Positions 38,096 to 46,791 of a stretch of 64,000 nt of DNA are shown here, in pieces. Both the position numbers and the translations under genes were made by a program. The stretch comes from Elsinoe ampelina (taxonomy: Eukaryota), in NCBI GenBank assembly GCA_010093995.1, contig ML992503.1, positions 859,234-923,233 of the forward strand. The letters run 5' to 3'. The notes under the pieces are model-generated. The model did not search any database and was not told the origin of the DNA. It worked only from the letters and a program-made list of their open reading frames with translations. Numbering within the stretch: position 1 is the stretch's first letter; every line of letters starts with the position of its first letter.

Positions 38096-38935
38096 TCATT
38101 TGATGTCCTCCCGTCGCAGATCATTCACGACCATATATCGTGATATACTGATCCAACCCCATCTGAACCATCGCATTTGACTTTTGTGTGCTTCCGTCAT
38201 GGCTCTCTGCCCACTTCTGTACCCTCCAACGCCGCTGATCGCAAGGAGCGGATCCGGATACTCCCCTCCCTTCTTCCTGCTCAAGAGCCTCGCGACGACC
38301 GTAATGGGGACATCCAAGATCGATGCGTACTTCCTCGCAACCCCCAGCGAAGGCAAAACGTACAACTTCACAGCAGCATCCCAACCTTCCCTCCCCTTGA
38401 CCAAAGTTCGCACAAATGCCTTCGCCCCATGATACAGCGAGATATGATTTGGATGACCCGACACCCCCTGCCCATCAAACGTGATCAGCACATCAATCCC
38501 AGCTTTCACCGGCCCATCCCTCTTCGCCTTTTCCAACTCCGGCACAAACGTCTTCGTCAATAAATCCACAATCGGACTCTCATCCCACGTCCTCGTCATC
38601 GAATCCGGGAACCTCTCATCATCCAAAACCAGCACATCGCTCTCGTTCCGCACCCCCAGCAGCAAGCCGGATTTGACCAATTCCTGCCGGCGGATCGAGC
38701 CCAAGCCGTCAGCGTTGCCGGTGCTGAGGCAGAGGATCTTGAGGTGATTCCCCAGGTGTGGTTTGGTCAGAGCGAGGATCGAGGGGGAGAAGAACATGGC
38801 TTCGTCGTCGGGATGGGCGATGAGGAGGAGGATCCGTTTGCCCCTGAGGGTGGGGAAGGAGGGGGTCAGGTTGGCGGTGAGGAGCCAGAGGGTAAGAGGG
38901 AGGAGGGGGAGGAGGTACCAATTGAGGAATTCCAT
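38096..38935 (-). CDS. GPI12: N-acetylglucosaminyl-phosphatidylinositol de-N-acetylase (PIG-L)
   Basis: N-terminal TM, IAHPDDEAMFFSP, LCLSTGNADGLG, TFDGQGVSGHPNH, HKSQMRWFRWGW, SRYMVVNDL. Confidence 0.96.
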   Translation of the reverse strand: MEFLNWYLLPLLPLTLWLLTANLTPSFPTLRGKRILLLIAHPDDEAMFFSPSILALTKPHLGNHLKILCLSTGNADGLGSIRRQELVKSGLLLGVRNESDVLVLDDERFPDSMTRTWDESPIVDLLTKTFVPELEKAKRDGPVKAGIDVLITFDGQGVSGHPNHISLYHGAKAFVRTLVKGREGWDAAVKLYVLPSLGVARKYASILDVPITVVARLLSRKKGGEYPDPLLAISGVGGYRSGQRAMTEAHKSQMRWFRWGWISISRYMVVNDLRREDIK

Positions 38936-39296
38936 TGATGCTGGTGTTGTGCTAGCTTGTCATATTGATTTGTGAACGATTTTGTCGTACTTGTCGAGTG
39001 CTAAACGTGAGGTGAGGTTGGGAGGGAGCCCGCAACCTCACCTGCCAAGACCTTCAATTTCACTCGGAAAATTCGATTTCACATCCGATATCCTTACCAC
39101 TTGTTAGACTTTACACATCAACTTCACCTCTACCAAATCAACCCCATTCAAGCCGCAAAGTTTATGTTCAAATCAAGTCCGGATGGTGAATTGTGCTCGC
39201 AAGAGGCGTACCAGGTTCACGACAACGACTGCCGATGTTTGACTTTAGCCGCATCCGCCCGAGGTCCTGGATAACCTCGCTATTGGTCGGCACCGT

Positions 39297-39368
39297 CATG
39301 CATACGGTAGCTTCCGCCAAAACAGTCAAAACAGTCAAAACGCTCAAAACCATCAAAACGCTCAAACC
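39297..39368 (+). repeat. Left TIR plus 9-bp subterminal repeats (NNTCAAAAC)
   Basis: catgcatacggtagcttccgccaaaac agtcaaaac agtcaaaac gctcaaaac catcaaaac gctcaaacc. Confidence 0.9.
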
Positions 39369-39789
39369 CAGTATTTGCTATTATACCACCTCCCCGCGTA
39401 CCACCTATACCACTTATTGCAATGATTCTTATTGCAATTGACAGCTCTTATAACGCTCTATCGTTTAATATAAGTATTATTCTCTTATTATATACCTTTA
39501 GTTTTTTGTGGCTTAGCGCTAGTATAAAAGCTAGATGCGCTGGTTTTCTATACCTTTCTTCCTATTACCCCTTAATATACTACACTACTCGATATAGCTT
39601 TATAATCCGCTACAATCGAGGTAGATAGGCCTCTTATCAAGTACTAGTTACTACACAAGCGCTATAATTAGCCTAAAGTACTCTAGAGGCTATTAAGGCG
39701 TAGTTACACCCTGTCGCTTAGAATGCTCTAGCGCCTCTTATAAGGCTAGTAGCTCTCTATCTACCCTAAGGCACTAGTTAACTCCGAGG

Positions 39790-40980
39790 CTCTCTACTAT
39801 AGCATTAAGGAGCTATTCTAGCTATGTATTAGCTAGTAAGAGACGCTAGAGGTACTAAAAGAGTAAGGCTTTAATATATCGTTAGGGACGCTAAAGCGCC
39901 TACGTAAAGAGTTAGGCCTTATCTATTAGATTAATCGAGAAGAGGACGAGGTTAAGTATAAGCGAATATAGTAGCTACTATAAAGTAAATACGACGCTAG
40001 TAATATTAAGGATTAGAGCCTTAGCTACCTTTATACCTATATAAGGCAGAAGTATAGGATTGTCGAGAGGTAATACATGTTTGTAATACGTTTACTAGTT
40101 AGTTTACTAACTCTAACCTAGTCGGCGCCTTTACTGCGCTATAATTGTAATTAATTCCTTAGCGTTCTAGATTTATAGTAACTAGCGGCCTGCCGGTCAC
40201 GGCGTATAAGACGTACTAGAGCTAAACTATACCTAGTCGATAGACGCCTATTATAAGCTTAAGGAGTATAGTATTGAGATTTATGCCGTAATTAACGAAT
40301 TTTCACGCTATATTATTTAGGCCTATATAGGCTTCTTAGTAAGGAAGGCTATATTAATTATAAAGTAGTATACTACTATTACTACCTTATATAGCCGAAT
40401 CCCCCTCGAGATCCGCATAGATAGAGGGAGTAAGACTATAATAGTCTTATAAGTGTATCTCGACGCTTGGCGTTAGCTAAGTAGTCTCCCTTTAGAGGTG
40501 AATAAAGCCTTCTTATTCGGCACAAGTAAGCAGAATTAGCGTATTAAATTATAGTAGGCCTAGCTTACGAAGAGTACTACGAACTACTAGCGAAGATAGT
40601 TTACTAAGCTAAAGAAGTTAAAGCGCTAGAAGCGTAATCTTATTACTTACTAAGTCGCTCTTATAGCTATATACATGCCTATTCTTCGTATAGAGGTATA
40701 GCAATTCGTGTATTAATAGAACTATTACTGTATCCGGAAGTAGCTAAGACAACTGTATATAATTATAGAGGTGCTAAGGCTTTTATATTATTATCTAGAG
40801 ATAGTCGACGTATAGAACTATACTATTGCTATACTACCTAACTAATTCGATAATTTAGACTAGTACACTAGCGAATTTAGTAAGGTATAAGTACTAATAG
40901 ATATTTGTAGCTAATTAAGCACTAGATTATAAGTAATATCTACCCTCTAACACCCTTAATCTCTATACCTTAATTCTCTC
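39790..40980 (+). pseudogene. RIP-degraded transposase (N-terminal HTH plus integrase-core DDE); boundaries approximate
   Basis: Still readable as is: GFNISLGTLKRLRKELGL. After reversing RIP-type changes: PGPNYTWSxDAYxKLxEYGIEIYA.ID.FSRYIIW (~40215-40320), IPLEIRxDRGSET (~40400-40437), FGTSKQNQRIExWW (~40515-40557), FV..WNHH.IRK (~40705-40740). Intron-like GT...CTAAC...TAG at ~40069-40121. Confidence 0.82.
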
Positions 40981-41318
40981 CGCCGCTGGCCTCTAGCCTT
41001 ATAATAGTTAAGTAACTAATACTTACGGTGTTAGACTCCACTAGAGGGCTTATTTTATGCTTCGTAATGTACTAATTAAGCACAATTAATAGTAGTGCTA
41101 TTCTCTACTATTGGAGTGCTAAAAACTAGATAATTCTTAAGGCTATTAATTATATATAGAAGTTGCCGAGCAAATCGTAAACGCTAAGTAAATACACTAT
41201 AAACATCTAACTTATATATATTAAATCCCCTCTCTAATATACTAGGGCTTTCCTACTCTATTTTCTCTACGGTTTTTACTTATTACTACTATATTGTTTA
41301 TTTATTACTACTAGCGAG

Positions 41319-43085
41319 ATGCCGCTACCTTCTTAGGCACCTTTTTACAAATATAAAGGCTCTAATTACGTAGTTAAATATAGACACCTCGCTAAGTGTT
41401 CTATTTGCTATAAGACTAATCTAAACTATTAATAAGTAAGTATAGTATTAACGCTAGAAGAGCCTTAGTACTAACCTATATAGGCTAGTCTATCTCGCGT
41501 ACTATCTAGTAGTCTAACTCGCGCGCTATCTTAGGCTAACATAGACTAACTCGTAATTATAGTAGCGAATATAAAGCAATCTATAGCGCCGGCGCTAACC
41601 GTATATAGTAGTCTCTTAACTAAAGCTAATACGGCAAGGCGTGCTAGATACTAGAAGGGCAAAAAGGCTAAAGGCGTAGTAGTATAATTGCTATATATAG
41701 GATCTTTGCTAGTCTCTTAGTGTTTATATAAGGACTTACTAAATAATTCGCCTAACGAAGAAACTCCTAAAGGACTAAAGGCTAATAAAGAGTAAAGAAT
41801 TAGACTTTACCTCTACGGCCTAACAATCGAGATAGAGTATAAGCTTAAGCATAGTATACCTTATAAGAAGATTATCTCTTAGCTAGAGCTAACTAAGTAG
41901 ACGGACTAGATTACGCTATCGGAGTTTAATACCGAATTACTAGAGAGTAACTACTAAAGAACGTCCTTCTTGTTAAATTTAGTCTATAGTTACTACTCTA
42001 ATCCTACTATCCGCGATCTAGAAATAGTAATACTACGCTTTACAAAGCGCTATTTCGCACTAATAGAGGACAATAAGGCTATGCCTATTGCTAACAACGT
42101 CTTCTAGTAGCTAAGCATCTAGAAGATATTAGTTAGCCTCCCGCGTAAGCCGAAATTAAAGCGTACTACTATCGAGTATCTCCTTTATGTCGTAATTAAA
42201 CAAGCTAAGGACGACAAGTCGAAGAAACAGTAGAAGTATATAGAGTATCTATAGAGAGAGTTAGAATCTCTAAGTTACGCTACGAACGCTAATATAAATA
42301 TAATAATATCCCTAGCTATAAACACTAAAGCGAATATTAAGGCTAATTCGTAGAATAAAAATCTTTTTATAGAGGACACCGACTTCTCGTTTTTAAATAC
42401 TTCTAACGACGTTAATGTTAAGCTAGAACCCTCGTCGGTTAATAATAAGATTAAGGCCTTAATTGAGGAGCGTATATAGCAAGTTTTAGTAGCTAGGGCA
42501 AAGGGGAAGGAGAAGTAGCCTAGCTAGCTTGTCGACGGCAAGGAGACTATTAACCTTATAGAGTCTTTACTAGCCGCACCTACTACTACTATGCTAGCTC
42601 TACTACTAGAGACTCTACGCTTCTAGCTTTATACTAGGAGCCTTCTTATAAGTATACCGACTAGTATAGTTAGCAGTGTTAAGTCATCGACTATATAGGA
42701 TAATCTCTTTAACTTAGATAGTACTACCGAGCCTCTACTACCTTTTAACACCCCTCGGTAGCTATAGCGTATAGTGCTAAGTAAGGAGACTCTCGGTAGG
42801 CTAATAAACTTACTATATAGCTCTCTCTTTAAAGCTAAGTCGTCTATAGAATTAGAGTAAAGGATTAAGACTAAGGCAACCTCTAAGGAGTATTAAGAAC
42901 AGCACAAGCAAGTTAATAAGCCTAAGTAATTATATTAACCTCGAATATATAAGCAAACACGAAGCAATTACTCGGTTAAGGCTAGTAAGCGTTAAAAGAC
43001 TATAGTTAATCTAACTAACTATACTCTCTATAGTTATACTAGCTATAAGGCTAAAAGGCCTTATAAGTCTATACTAGGGTCATAG
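41319..43085 (+). pseudogene. Second RIP-degraded gene of the transposon, function unknown; 3' end approximate
   Basis: ATG at 41319; Cys/His-rich start (HLAKCSIC survives); canonical intron GTAAGT...TACTAAC...TAG at ~41436-41483; codon-like sequence continues with many TAG/TAA stops. Confidence 0.5.
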
Positions 43086-43364
43086 GCTTGCCTAAAAGGG
43101 TAAGGCGTAGTTTGACACCCTATATATATACTTCTTCTTACTAATAATTCTCTTCTAGTAAAAAACCTCTTTATAGAGAGGAGAGAGAAAGAGAGAGGAG
43201 ATAAGAGCCCCCTACGTAGCGGAGAGTATAAGCACCCTCTACTATATCCTACCGCCTTACTATTAGGGTAGTAGGGTAGAGAGGGGAGATACGAGGGGGG
43301 GTAGGGGTAGGGGTAGTAGTAGGGGTAGAGTTAGGGGTAAAGGTGTTAGTTAGAGGTGCACGAA

Positions 43365-43565
43365 TTAGATAGTGCAAGTTAGACAGTAGTAGAACAGTTT
43401 ATAGTACGAGCTAGATAGGTAGTAGACTAGTTCGTAGTGCAAGCTAGACAGCAGTATACGAGTTAGACAGTAGTAACGAGTTAAACGGCAGTACGAGCTA
43501 GATAGTAGTAACGAGTTAGATAGTAGTATACAAGTTAGATAGTATAAGGTAGACAGTGCAAGTAG
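43365..43565. repeat. Degenerate tandem repeat (about 12-20 bp units, GAGTTAGACAGTAGTA-like) inside the transposon
   Basis: Recurring agttagacagtagt / agctagacagcagt / agctagatagtagt units. Confidence 0.6.
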
Positions 43566-43699
43566 GATCGCTAGTAGTTCGCTAAGCAATTTATAGTACA
43601 TATAGTTACGATTTAACATTGACTAGAGGAGGCAATATAAAGGGAGTAAAATTATAGTCTATAAACTCTAGAAGAATATATAGGTATTATATTTACTAC

Positions 43700-44400
43700 T
43701 AGTTTATAGGCCTATTTACAAGTTCCGCAATTCTATCCCTTAGCTACTATAGCTTAGCCTTAGTAGCGAGCGTATTATTCTCTAGCGCCTCTACTCTCTA
43801 CTTAAGCTCCTTAATACAGCCTATAGTTACTAGCTTCTAATCCTCTAGCTTCTCCTTCGTAAGCTAAGAGGCACACCCCTAGCGATAGTAGCGGCGGTAG
43901 TATATACACGACTTAGACTACTTGTTAAGGAAGTAAGTATATAGCTCGTTTGCCTTTATACACTGTTCGTAGGTGCGTTTACTAATGCCGCCTTCGTTTG
44001 TCTCTATAATGCGGCCGATAGTGTTATATATATAGAGCATTATAAAGTTCTTACTACGCTTGTTACTACTAGTCTCGCAGGTGTTAACGAGCTTAAACTA
44101 GTTTAACTCAGAGATAAACTAAAATCTAGCTAGATTCTCAGTCTTAGAGTAGTAGTATAAGTATATAATAGGGTAGCTATGCGAATTAGTGGCGAACACT
44201 AGCCTAAGGAGCTATAAAGACATATACGGCCTTAGAGTTACTAGTTGTTTCCTTAGAGGTATTAGAGGCATAAGGATCGTTATTAATTATAGCATCTAGC
44301 GCTTACGAATCGTATCTTCTAGAAGGTAAAGTTAGTAGTAAACTAGCTACAAATATGCTATAATATATACTTAGTAGAGGTTGCTTTAGTAGTGTTAGCT
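43700..44400 (-). pseudogene. Third RIP-degraded gene: Zn(II)2Cys6-like cluster plus coiled coil; boundaries approximate
   Basis: Minus strand 43971-43873 gives C-x2-C-x6-C-x10-C-x2-C-x7-C when three TAY codons are restored to TGY; the other three Cys are intact TGT. It is followed by IKELK*RVEALEN...L**LRDRIAEL. Confidence 0.62.
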
Positions 44401-44904
44401 ATAGTAAATATTTAATTAAATTTAACAGGGTTATAATAGTATAGTAGAGTTCTAATTAAACTATATAGTAACTATAAGCTTATATATATTAAAGCTACTA
44501 TTATTGTTGCTAGTTTAAATAGTGACAATAGTAACAATAGTGACAATATAAAGACCTAAAAGCGGTAAGGAACAATAAACACCTACCGGATTAAGCCTTA
44601 CTCTTAGTAGCTTAAATAGAGAATAATAGAGATCTATTCTAATAGTATTTATAGTACATTCGCCGCCGTAGTTGCATGATGTAGGCAATATCAAGGTGTT
44701 AGAGGTAGGAGTGCTAGCGGAGTGCTAAGCACCTCGCCGCCTAGCCGCTGTGACATGCACTAATTACGCTAGTACTAAAATTAGCTTAAAAAAAATACTT
44801 AAAGTTAAAGGATGATAGAATAGATTAATCTGATCAATTTACTGTTAATTATATATCAATATTGACAGAATTAAGGGAGTTAGAGGCCTCTAAACTTTGA
44901 TGAT

Positions 44905-44963
44905 TTGGGGATTTAAGTGTTTTGATGGTTTTGACGGTTTTGGCGGAAGCTACCGTATGCACG
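44905..44963 (-). repeat. Right TIR plus 9-bp subterminal repeats
   Basis: Reverse complement reads cgtgcatacggtagcttccgccaaaac cgtcaaaac catcaaaac acttaaatc. Confidence 0.9.
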
Positions 44964-45604
44964 ACCGTCGTCGGTAAGACGAGGGGGCCAGCGCAGGATC
45001 GCCTGCTCCCAGGTTTTGGAAATGCCCCGCGTCGGAGGAGACCCCGCATCTCCACACTGGGCGATGTACAAAGATGCAAGCCAAGAAACTGAATACAGTG
45101 ACGAAAACACCAGAGTAATTCCTTACAACAAGCCAATTGGGTTGTCACTTCACGTACAACAGTCGGTAAGTACATTTCATCAACTTCTGGCACTTCAAAG
45201 GCCTCAAGTGGCACGCTTGCAACCAAGACAGCCCCCGCGAAACGTCCGTGACCCCTCCAAAGTCTATCCCCAATAGCATCCGGCTGTTCTGGCCGTTGCT
45301 CTCGGCTCACGTCGATTGTGGTCTGTGGGCTACCTCTAGCTCTTCCTTATAACGATCTGCCCCGCCATATTCCCCCACCATGTCCTCATTCGCTTCAAAT
45401 AACATACCACCATCTTTACGCCGCGCCTGGGAAGAAGCAGAACTACTCGAGCAAAAGCTACGTGAACATATTGGGTCAAGACAGCCAGAGCAAAGCAAGA
45501 GCACCTCCGAAGAAAAAGAGCAGGCAACAACACCAGCAGCAGTCAAGCGCAGCACGCAGCAATCGTCCACCACTGAGCAGAAGGCTGTCTCTCCTCCGAC
45601 CACC

Positions 45605-46791
45605 ATGGCCGAAGCATACAAGGCCCGCGCCATCGTCACCCGCAGCTCCCTTCACGACGATGGCTGGCAACTCGAAGACGTCTCCACCACCACAGACGTC
45701 CAGGACGACGAAGTAGTCGTCGAGATGGTCGCCTCAGGTACCACCTCCTCCCCAACCCCTCAGCCTCACTAACCCCCAAAGGCATCTGCCACACCGACAT
45801 CCTCATCGGCACCCTCCCCGCCGGCACTCCCATGACCCAATACCCCCGCATCATGGGCCACGAAGGCTCCGGCTACGTCCGCTACGCCGGCAAATCCGTC
45901 ACCTCCGTCTCCATCGGCGACCCGGTCCTCCTCTCCTACACCTTCTGCTCCACCTGCCACACCTGCCAGGCCTCTCACCCAAGCTACTGCGAACAATTCG
46001 TGCCGCTCAACTTCGGCGGCCGCCCCACCTTCACCGACGCCTCCGGCTCCCCCATCCCCGGCTCCTTCTTCGGCCAATCCTCCTTCGCGAGCTACTCCAT
46101 CGTGCGCGCGTCCTCGCTCGTCAACGCCTCCTCGCTCGTCTCCTCCCGCGACGACCTCGCCCTCTTCGCCCCGCTCGGGTGCGGCATCCAAACCGGCTCC
46201 GGCACCGTGGTCAACGCATCCGGCGCCACTCCCGCCTCGACCCTCGTCGTCACCGGCCTCGGAGGCGTGGGCCTCTCGGCCGTCATGGGCGCGCGCATCG
46301 TCGGCGCCCGCACCATCGTCGGCATCGACCGCGTGCCCATGCGTCTCGAGCTGGCGAGGACTCTCGGCGCGACTCACGTGGTGGACAGCTCCAAGCTACC
46401 GGAGGGTAAGTCTCTCAGCGACGTCGTGCGGGACATCTGCGACGGCGTGGGCCCGCATATCACGGTCGAAACGTCGGGCGCGCCGCCGCTCATCGAGGCG
46501 GCGGTGGATTTCACCCGGGCCAAGGGGAGTGTACTCCAGGTCGGGGCGGCGCCGCCCGGCTGGGAGTTGAAGCTGGAGGTGTTTAGCTATTTGACGCAGG
46601 GGAAGAGTTACAAGGGGGTCGTCGAGGGGGAGGCGAATCCGCCCGACTATGTGCCCAAGATGGTGCAGTGGTATAGGGAGGGGAGGTTCCCGGTGGATAA
46701 GTTGGTCAAGTTTATGAAGGCGGATGAGTTCAAGAGGGGGTTGCATGAGATGCATACGGGGGAGACGATTAAGCCGGTGATTTTGTGGTAG
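45605..46791 (+). CDS. Zinc-dependent medium-chain alcohol dehydrogenase (aryl-alcohol dehydrogenase-like), 2 exons
   Basis: EMVASG/ICHTD, GHEGSG, structural Zn motif CSTCHTCQASHPSYC, PLGCGIQTGSG, GLGGVG, IKPVILW. Intron at ~45738-45781. An alternative in-frame ATG lies at 45380. Confidence 0.92.

Follow-up and report, generated by a model that had tools for sequence, protein, structure and literature searches.

Did a DNA transposon of the fungus Elsinoe ampelina once carry a gene for its own fungal-type DNA-binding protein? The question is raised by a minus-strand stretch in the 64-kb window studied here (the whole 64,000-nucleotide stretch of contig ML992503.1, within which all positions below are counted). 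An initial annotation, made from the letters of the DNA, read this stretch as the remains of a transposon-borne gene that joins a Gal4-type Zn(II)2Cys6 cluster to a coiled coil, with three of the six cysteine codons changed to tyrosine codons by repeat-induced point mutation (RIP).

Stop-to-stop open reading frames of at least 110 codons were compared with Pfam, and the 75 scanned, of 161 in the window, describe an ordinary fungal gene space that includes MDM10, ribosomal proteins, kinases and ribonucleotide reductase. An AT-rich island lies at 39-45 kb, where the GC content is 0.34-0.42 as against 0.49-0.65 in the rest of the window. Between 39501 and 44500 the TpA/ApT index is 1.7-3.2 (0.2-0.9 in the flanks) and the (CpA+TpG)/(ApC+GpT) index is 0.20-0.36 (1.05-1.63 in the flanks), which together are the signature of RIP. 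GC content, RIP indices and a terminal inverted repeat (TIR) delimit a degraded DNA transposon (Table 1). The 5-bp direct repeat GTCGG, present at 39286-39290 and 44970-44974, is a candidate target duplication; an alternative parse of the ends gives a duplication ACCGT(C) of 5-6 bp and an element running from 39297 or 39298 to 44963. The DNA around the transposon is gene-dense and un-RIPed, with RIP indices that are normal again about 500 bp beyond either end. Its neighbors are a PIG-L (GlcNAc-PI de-N-acetylase) gene on the minus strand (38099-38959) and a zinc-type alcohol dehydrogenase gene on the plus strand (45577-46788).

Table 1. Positions of the transposon and of the features recognized within it, counted in the 64-kb window
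Feature	Position	Strand	Remarks
RIP-degraded TIR DNA transposon	39291..44969		5679 bp; flanked by GTCGG direct repeat; delimited by GC, RIP indices and inverted repeat
Left terminal inverted repeat	39292..39351	+	60 nt, 87% complementary to 44909-44968
Right terminal inverted repeat	44909..44968	-	Partner of the left 60-nt repeat
9-bp subterminal repeats CAAAACNNT, left	39318-39366		5.4 copies
9-bp subterminal repeats, right	44919-44946		3.1 copies
CGG-N6-CCG motif CGGTAGCTTCCG, left TIR	39305..39316	+	Twin in right TIR
CGG-N6-CCG motif, right TIR	44944-44955	-	Twin of the left motif
Integrase-core (DDE) domain of transposase gene	40225..40737	+	Pfam PF24764 rva_4, read through RIP stops
Second gene-like stretch (approximate limits)	41484..42984	+	Fewest stops of the six frames
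Tandem-repeat spacer between convergent genes	43298..43528		Repeats within ~43170-43550; 6/12-bp GGGGTA-type and 18/33-bp units
Putative dead accessory gene	43699..44043	-	~115 codons, 8 internal TAG
Cys/Tyr pattern Y-x2-C-x6-Y-x10-C-x2-Y-x7-C	43873..43971	-	Zn2Cys6-like spacing if Tyr were Cys
Five-heptad coiled-coil segment IKELKxRVEALENNTLATKAKLxxLRDRIAELVNR (predicted)	43711..43815	-	Top heptad score

The motif CGGTAGCTTCCG has two matches against 0.17 expected, one in each TIR arm, so that the CGG and CCG triplets which the initial annotation had pointed out in the TIR take the form of CGG-N6-CCG in both repeats. This arrangement occurs three times in the element in all, the third copy lying at 41590, and it is the half-site arrangement of Ppr1. 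The 9-bp subterminal repeats adjoin the CGG-N6-CCG of each TIR on its inner side and are candidate protein-binding sites in their own right.

When the element was read through in six frames with stops as X, a single Pfam family was matched at E ≤ 1. This family is PF24764, which covers residues 312-482 in the frame starting at 39292 and scores 29 bits (cut-off 26; E 1e-6); by it the element has a DDE transposase of the IS3/integrase type, as IS3EU/GingerRoot transposons do. The integrase read-through found no match in a protein collection, among either longer or near-length proteins. A second plus-strand frame has 2-4 stops per 60 codons over 41631-43250, the lowest of the six, and this stretch had no Pfam match at E ≤ 1. 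As had been claimed, the minus-strand stretch is convergent with the integrase gene, PF24764 being on the plus strand. Between the convergent genes, 43087-43532 (444 bp) is skipped in one other genomic copy, which means that the length of the spacer differs among copies.

Other copies of the transposon were surveyed in Logan contigs from two runs (X1 and X2) of one sample at a likeness of at least 80%. The two runs gave 1005 and 872 contig pieces on the element, or about 4-12 contigs per place, and in run X1 979 of the 1058 kinds of difference are transitions, as expected of independently RIPed copies. The transposon family is multi-copy and its copies are differently RIPed, and the placement of the minus-strand stretch inside a TIR-bounded, RIP-killed, multi-copy element is borne out. 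Among the 40 variant places listed, of 1154, three fall in the putative accessory gene (43924, 43998 and 44039) and none at the Cys candidates. Of about eight other copies, one differs by five small gaps, with a net change of -4 bases, in the interval from Cys3 to Cys4. Positions 43998 and 44039 are mutated in this copy alone, by C>T in the contexts CpT and CpG, which means that RIP in this fungus extends beyond CpA. Scans of metagenomes with a 22-nt stretch of the TIR and with a 45-letter, transition-tolerant pattern over Cys1-Cys3 each returned 0 stretches.

Read on the minus strand from 43971, the codons are TAC GAA CAG TGT, six further codons, TAT, ten codons, TGT ATA TAC TAC, seven codons and TGT; three intact TGT and three TAY codons thus stand exactly at the places named for them by the initial annotation, with the spacing given there. 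The frame goes on, interrupted by TAG only, as LTKEKLEDxKLVTIGCIKELKxRVEALENNTLATKAKLxxLRDRIAELVNRPIN (x = TAG) and then meets TAG TAG TAA. Upstream, an ATA at 44043-44041 may once have been ATG. RIP produced the ATG at 44040-44038, since most other copies have ACG there (44039 is A>G in 6 contigs of run X1 and 7 contigs of run X2, at 84-89% of depth). The accessory gene is dead in this copy.

The first 56 residues comprise nine Tyr, three Cys and no His, which points to a Cys-rich ancestor. If Cys or Tyr is accepted at all six positions, the element has a single match to CX2CX6CX5-12CX2CX6-8C over its six frames. Among 1000 copies simulated with a second-order Markov model, 16.5% contained at least one such match and 1.0% one with at least three true Cys. 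When nine Tyr and three Cys were placed at random in 56 residues (200,000 trials), the spacing arose in 1.5% of trials and used all three Cys in 0.15%. The Cys/Tyr pattern exceeds what chance provides. No all-Cys Zn2Cys6 pattern was found in the six frames of the 64-kb window, and no Zn_clus gene among the 75 of its 161 long open reading frames that were scanned.

Some 19 codons beyond the last Cys, without a change of frame, comes a segment of five heptads. Its score of 20.6, on a purpose-written measure that is not a published predictor and was applied to 35-residue windows in six frames with the sequence already known rather than blind, is the highest of the element (99.9th percentile 15.9) and of the 64-kb window (next 17.2), and is above the maximum of each of 60 simulated elements out of 60 (mean 15.2, s.d. 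1.0, maximum 17.9). The heptad-like segment said to follow the cluster is thus confirmed as the top-scoring one, in the expected frame. The putative cluster is followed by a linker and a predicted coiled-coil dimerization element, a trait of a subclass of Gal4-type proteins. A bZIP reading was dropped, as no basic stretch precedes the zipper. Given the improbability of the pattern, the heptad score, and the fact that the two share a frame at a distance of about 19 codons, the 43971-43711 frame was very probably once coding, and it likely belonged to a former gene for a Cys-rich module and a coiled coil.

Whether that module was a Gal4-type cluster is the harder part of the question, and here the initial annotation fares unevenly. 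The spacing that would be cluster-like if the Tyr were Cys, and the probable coiled coil, stand, whereas its assignment to the Gal4 family finds no support from Zn_clus, from homologues or from the basic residues. The Zn_clus HMM, which it had put forward as a check, gave no match when run on the read-through. Neither Zn_clus nor any other Pfam family matched the 117-residue or the 44-residue read-through at E ≤ 10, and masking all TAY codons as X brought up no family either; the Zn_clus miss is weak evidence against the family, because the sequence is RIP-damaged. Searched with phmmer, 1.84 billion representatives (E ≤ 0.001) yielded no credible homologue and a single match, which was rejected as coiled-coil noise: a 617-residue protein of ADLQSLREQV-type repeats that aligned solely to residues 72-110. 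A word-indexed search of near-length proteins with the ORF read-through gave three candidates, none at E ≤ 10, and comparison with PDB sequences gave nothing at E ≤ 10. No intact homologue with six Cys was found by phmmer, in the word-indexed search or in the PDB. An AlphaFold2 single-sequence model of the read-through (mean pLDDT 48.9, pTM 0.32) was too poor for use.

Canonical Gal4-type clusters have an Arg after Cys2 and a Lys or Arg one and three places before Cys3 (R-x-x-K-x-K/R). In the present frame the residues between Cys2 and Cys3 are IKANEL (ATA AAG GCA AAC GAG CTA), which lack these basic residues. Undoing C>T and G>A changes on these codons yields T/M, K/R, A, N/D/S/G, E/G and L/P, so that a reversal of RIP cannot restore the consensus, there being no Arg at +1 and no Lys or Arg at +4 or +6. 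Elsewhere the frame does fit the Gal4-type consensus, with KRT ahead of Cys1, an acidic residue (Glu) behind Cys1, and Arg-Arg following Cys5. TAY codons can derive from CAY (His) as well as from TGY, and the Tyr may be original.

Our tentative preference, held at a little under even confidence, is for a RIP-killed accessory gene of about 115 codons (minus strand, ~44043-43699) in a 5.7-kb integrase-type TIR transposon, which would have encoded a six-Cys zinc module and a dimerizing coiled coil. The closest competitor, which we consider somewhat unlikely, likewise takes the frame for a real dead coiled-coil accessory gene and gives its N-terminal module another Cys or Cys/His zinc fold instead of the Gal4-type one. 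It may have been a finger with four Cys, C-x2-C-x17-C-x2-C, or a module like DUF3716 or like the 'GATA' or 'CCHC' types described for the accessory genes of the IS3EU-related Styx/REP9. With a gap of 17 residues between Cys2 and Cys4, the same letters fit C-x2-C-x17-C-x2-C. Nine Tyr beside three Cys in 56 residues are more than the ligands that a six-Cys cluster needs. By estimate from the RIP indices, about a quarter (~23%) of CpA/TpG sites survive RIP; at that survival, at least three remaining TGY codons of six are unremarkable (binomial ~14%), and a remainder of three Cys is somewhat more in keeping with 8-12 in the ancestor than with six, which favors an ancestor with more than six. The failure of Zn_clus even with Tyr masked, the lack of canonical basic residues between Cys2 and Cys3, and the Styx/REP9 precedent (REP9-1, of 193 aa and six Cys, and REP9-2, with DUF3716) also speak for another fold. 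Against it, Pfam returned no match to GATA, CCHC or DUF3716 either, in a test limited by RIP damage, and the six-position spacing with all three surviving Cys falls in the above 0.15% of random placements. The order of the parts also argues for the Gal4 type, as Gal4-type factors have an N-terminal cluster, a linker and a coiled coil in that order. A GATA reading in particular is a coincidence of spacing: GATA fingers carry a conserved Trp-Arg, which is missing here.

A distinctly improbable account retains the coiled coil as the whole of the former gene and regards the upstream Cys/Tyr pattern as coincidental in a RIPed sequence enriched in Tyr. The heptad signal is far stronger than the Cys/Tyr pattern, no domain is matched, the pattern criterion was picked after the sequence had been seen, and the [C/Y] pattern without a Cys requirement is that found in 16.5% of simulated elements. 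The frequency falls to 1.0%, however, once at least three true Cys are demanded, the pattern lies in-frame directly upstream of the coiled coil, a placement shared by about 0.5% of six-frame codon positions, and Cys and Tyr are locally enriched (12 of 56 residues). Most improbable is that there was never a gene and that both features are accidents of RIPed composition in non-coding transposon DNA: the stop density shows no preference for this frame (5-6 stops in 60 codons, where two frames of the plus strand have 2-3), the searches gave no homologue and the ATG is a RIP product, yet the heptad segment scores above all 60 of the composition-matched simulations and above the rest of the 64-kb window, and has the pattern in its own frame.

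The six-Cys reading thus preferred can be set out as follows. The host element would be a 5.7-kb integrase-type, putatively IS3EU-like TIR transposon. Before RIP, the protein would have begun with an N-terminal six-cysteine zinc-binding module of Gal4-like spacing, three TGY codons of which have since turned to TAY. A linker of about 18 residues would have followed the module, and then a five-heptad coiled coil pairing two chains. By analogy with Gal4-type proteins, the dimer may have bound paired CGG half-sites, for which the CGG-N6-CCG present once per TIR is the candidate target. The protein might have helped the transposase to find or hold the ends of the element, or have controlled the element's own transcription. 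We infer that the three Tyr were formerly Cys, that the protein bound zinc and DNA and dimerized, and what its target site and its role in transposition may have been. The wrecked gene probably encoded a cysteine-rich, coiled-coil DNA-binding protein.

The putative protein resembles Gal4, Ppr1 and Put3 (PF00172, Zn_clus) in its CX2CX6CX10CX2CX7C spacing, in the N-terminal position of the module, and in the linker followed by a predicted dimerizing coiled coil. It differs from Gal4-type proteins in having three of six Cys, no HMM match and no Arg/Lys between Cys2 and Cys3, in being transposon-borne, and in its length of about 115 residues, without a middle-homology or activation region.

Among transposons, Styx/ZtREP9 of Zymoseptoria is a close comparison. 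Styx is an IS3EU-related element of 7.9 kb with four genes, 43-bp TIRs and 6-bp TSDs, whose accessory proteins are of DUF3716, GATA and CCHC types with putatively DNA-binding Cys motifs; its authors did not find it outside Zymoseptoria, and its copies in sister species are RIP-killed (PMC8232023, PMC10853768). REP9-1 is described as a protein of 193 aa with six Cys, and both REP9-1 and REP9-2 carry DUF3716 (PMC8232023, section 2.4). By these descriptions, the literature already contains fungal DNA transposons of the integrase type whose accessory genes bear Cys motifs. Styx and the present element share the features of a TIR DNA transposon with an rve/integrase-type transposase, a RIP-active ascomycete as host, and small extra Cys-motif genes (putative in the present case). 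In a comparison by description only, the Styx accessory proteins differ in being given as DUF3716, GATA or CCHC and not as Zn2Cys6. No Pfam match to DUF3716 was found in our element or the read-through, where RIP damage limits the test.

IS3EU elements are described with TIRs of more than 30 bp, TAYGG..CCRTA / TA..TA termini and 6-bp TSDs (PMC10045372, PMC12730594), and in the TET+ IS3EU families an alpha-kinase gene runs in the opposite direction to the transposase gene (PMC10045372, Kojima and Bao 2023; PMC12730594, Kojima 2025). So described, IS3EU/GingerRoot transposons are similar to the present element in their integrase-like DDE transposase, TIRs longer than 30 bp, second gene in opposite orientation and TACGG near each end. 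By contrast with those descriptions, TACGG of the present element starts 12 nt in from the edge of the inverted repeat, its ends do not appear to be TA..TA, and its flanks carry as direct repeat GTCGG (5 bp) or, in the other parse, ACCGT(C). Alpha_kinase had no match in the six frames of the element at E ≤ 1, and the putative opposite-strand gene is the small Cys/coiled-coil one.

An antisense extra gene, brtn, is described for the Boty/BcGypsy1 retrotransposons of Botrytis cinerea in the part of that report referred to here (PMC8365987). Like the present stretch, it is a small additional gene on the strand opposite to the main genes of a fungal transposable element, as far as that description goes. 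The host element of brtn differs in being an LTR retrotransposon, and the two were compared by description only. Zhao et al. 2011 is reportedly the source for brtn of Boty/BcGypsy1.

Cut-and-paste transposons are usually thought to need their transposase alone. Partial precedent for a further element-encoded function comes from the accessory genes of Styx/REP9 and from brtn, as those sources describe them. At the level of titles and abstracts, searches of the literature outside subscription journals and Repbase reports turned up no paper on a Zn2Cys6 gene carried by an IS3EU element or any other DNA transposon. A broader proposal, which we rate as unlikely, is that unrelated classes of transposable element in one fungal genome each carry a mini-Gal4 zinc-cluster dimer as a recurrent and perhaps exchanged accessory function, the carrier in the present case being IS3EU-like and the function end recognition or self-regulation through CGG-N6-CCG. 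The finding concerns a dead copy of unproven family, so its value lies less in this locus than in pointing to a family that can be tested. If the six-Cys reading is true, the element would, through a fungal-type, sequence-specific DNA-binding dimer of its own, have had a further means besides the transposase of recognizing its ends or regulating itself, and new transcription factors of the host might arise from such a dimer.
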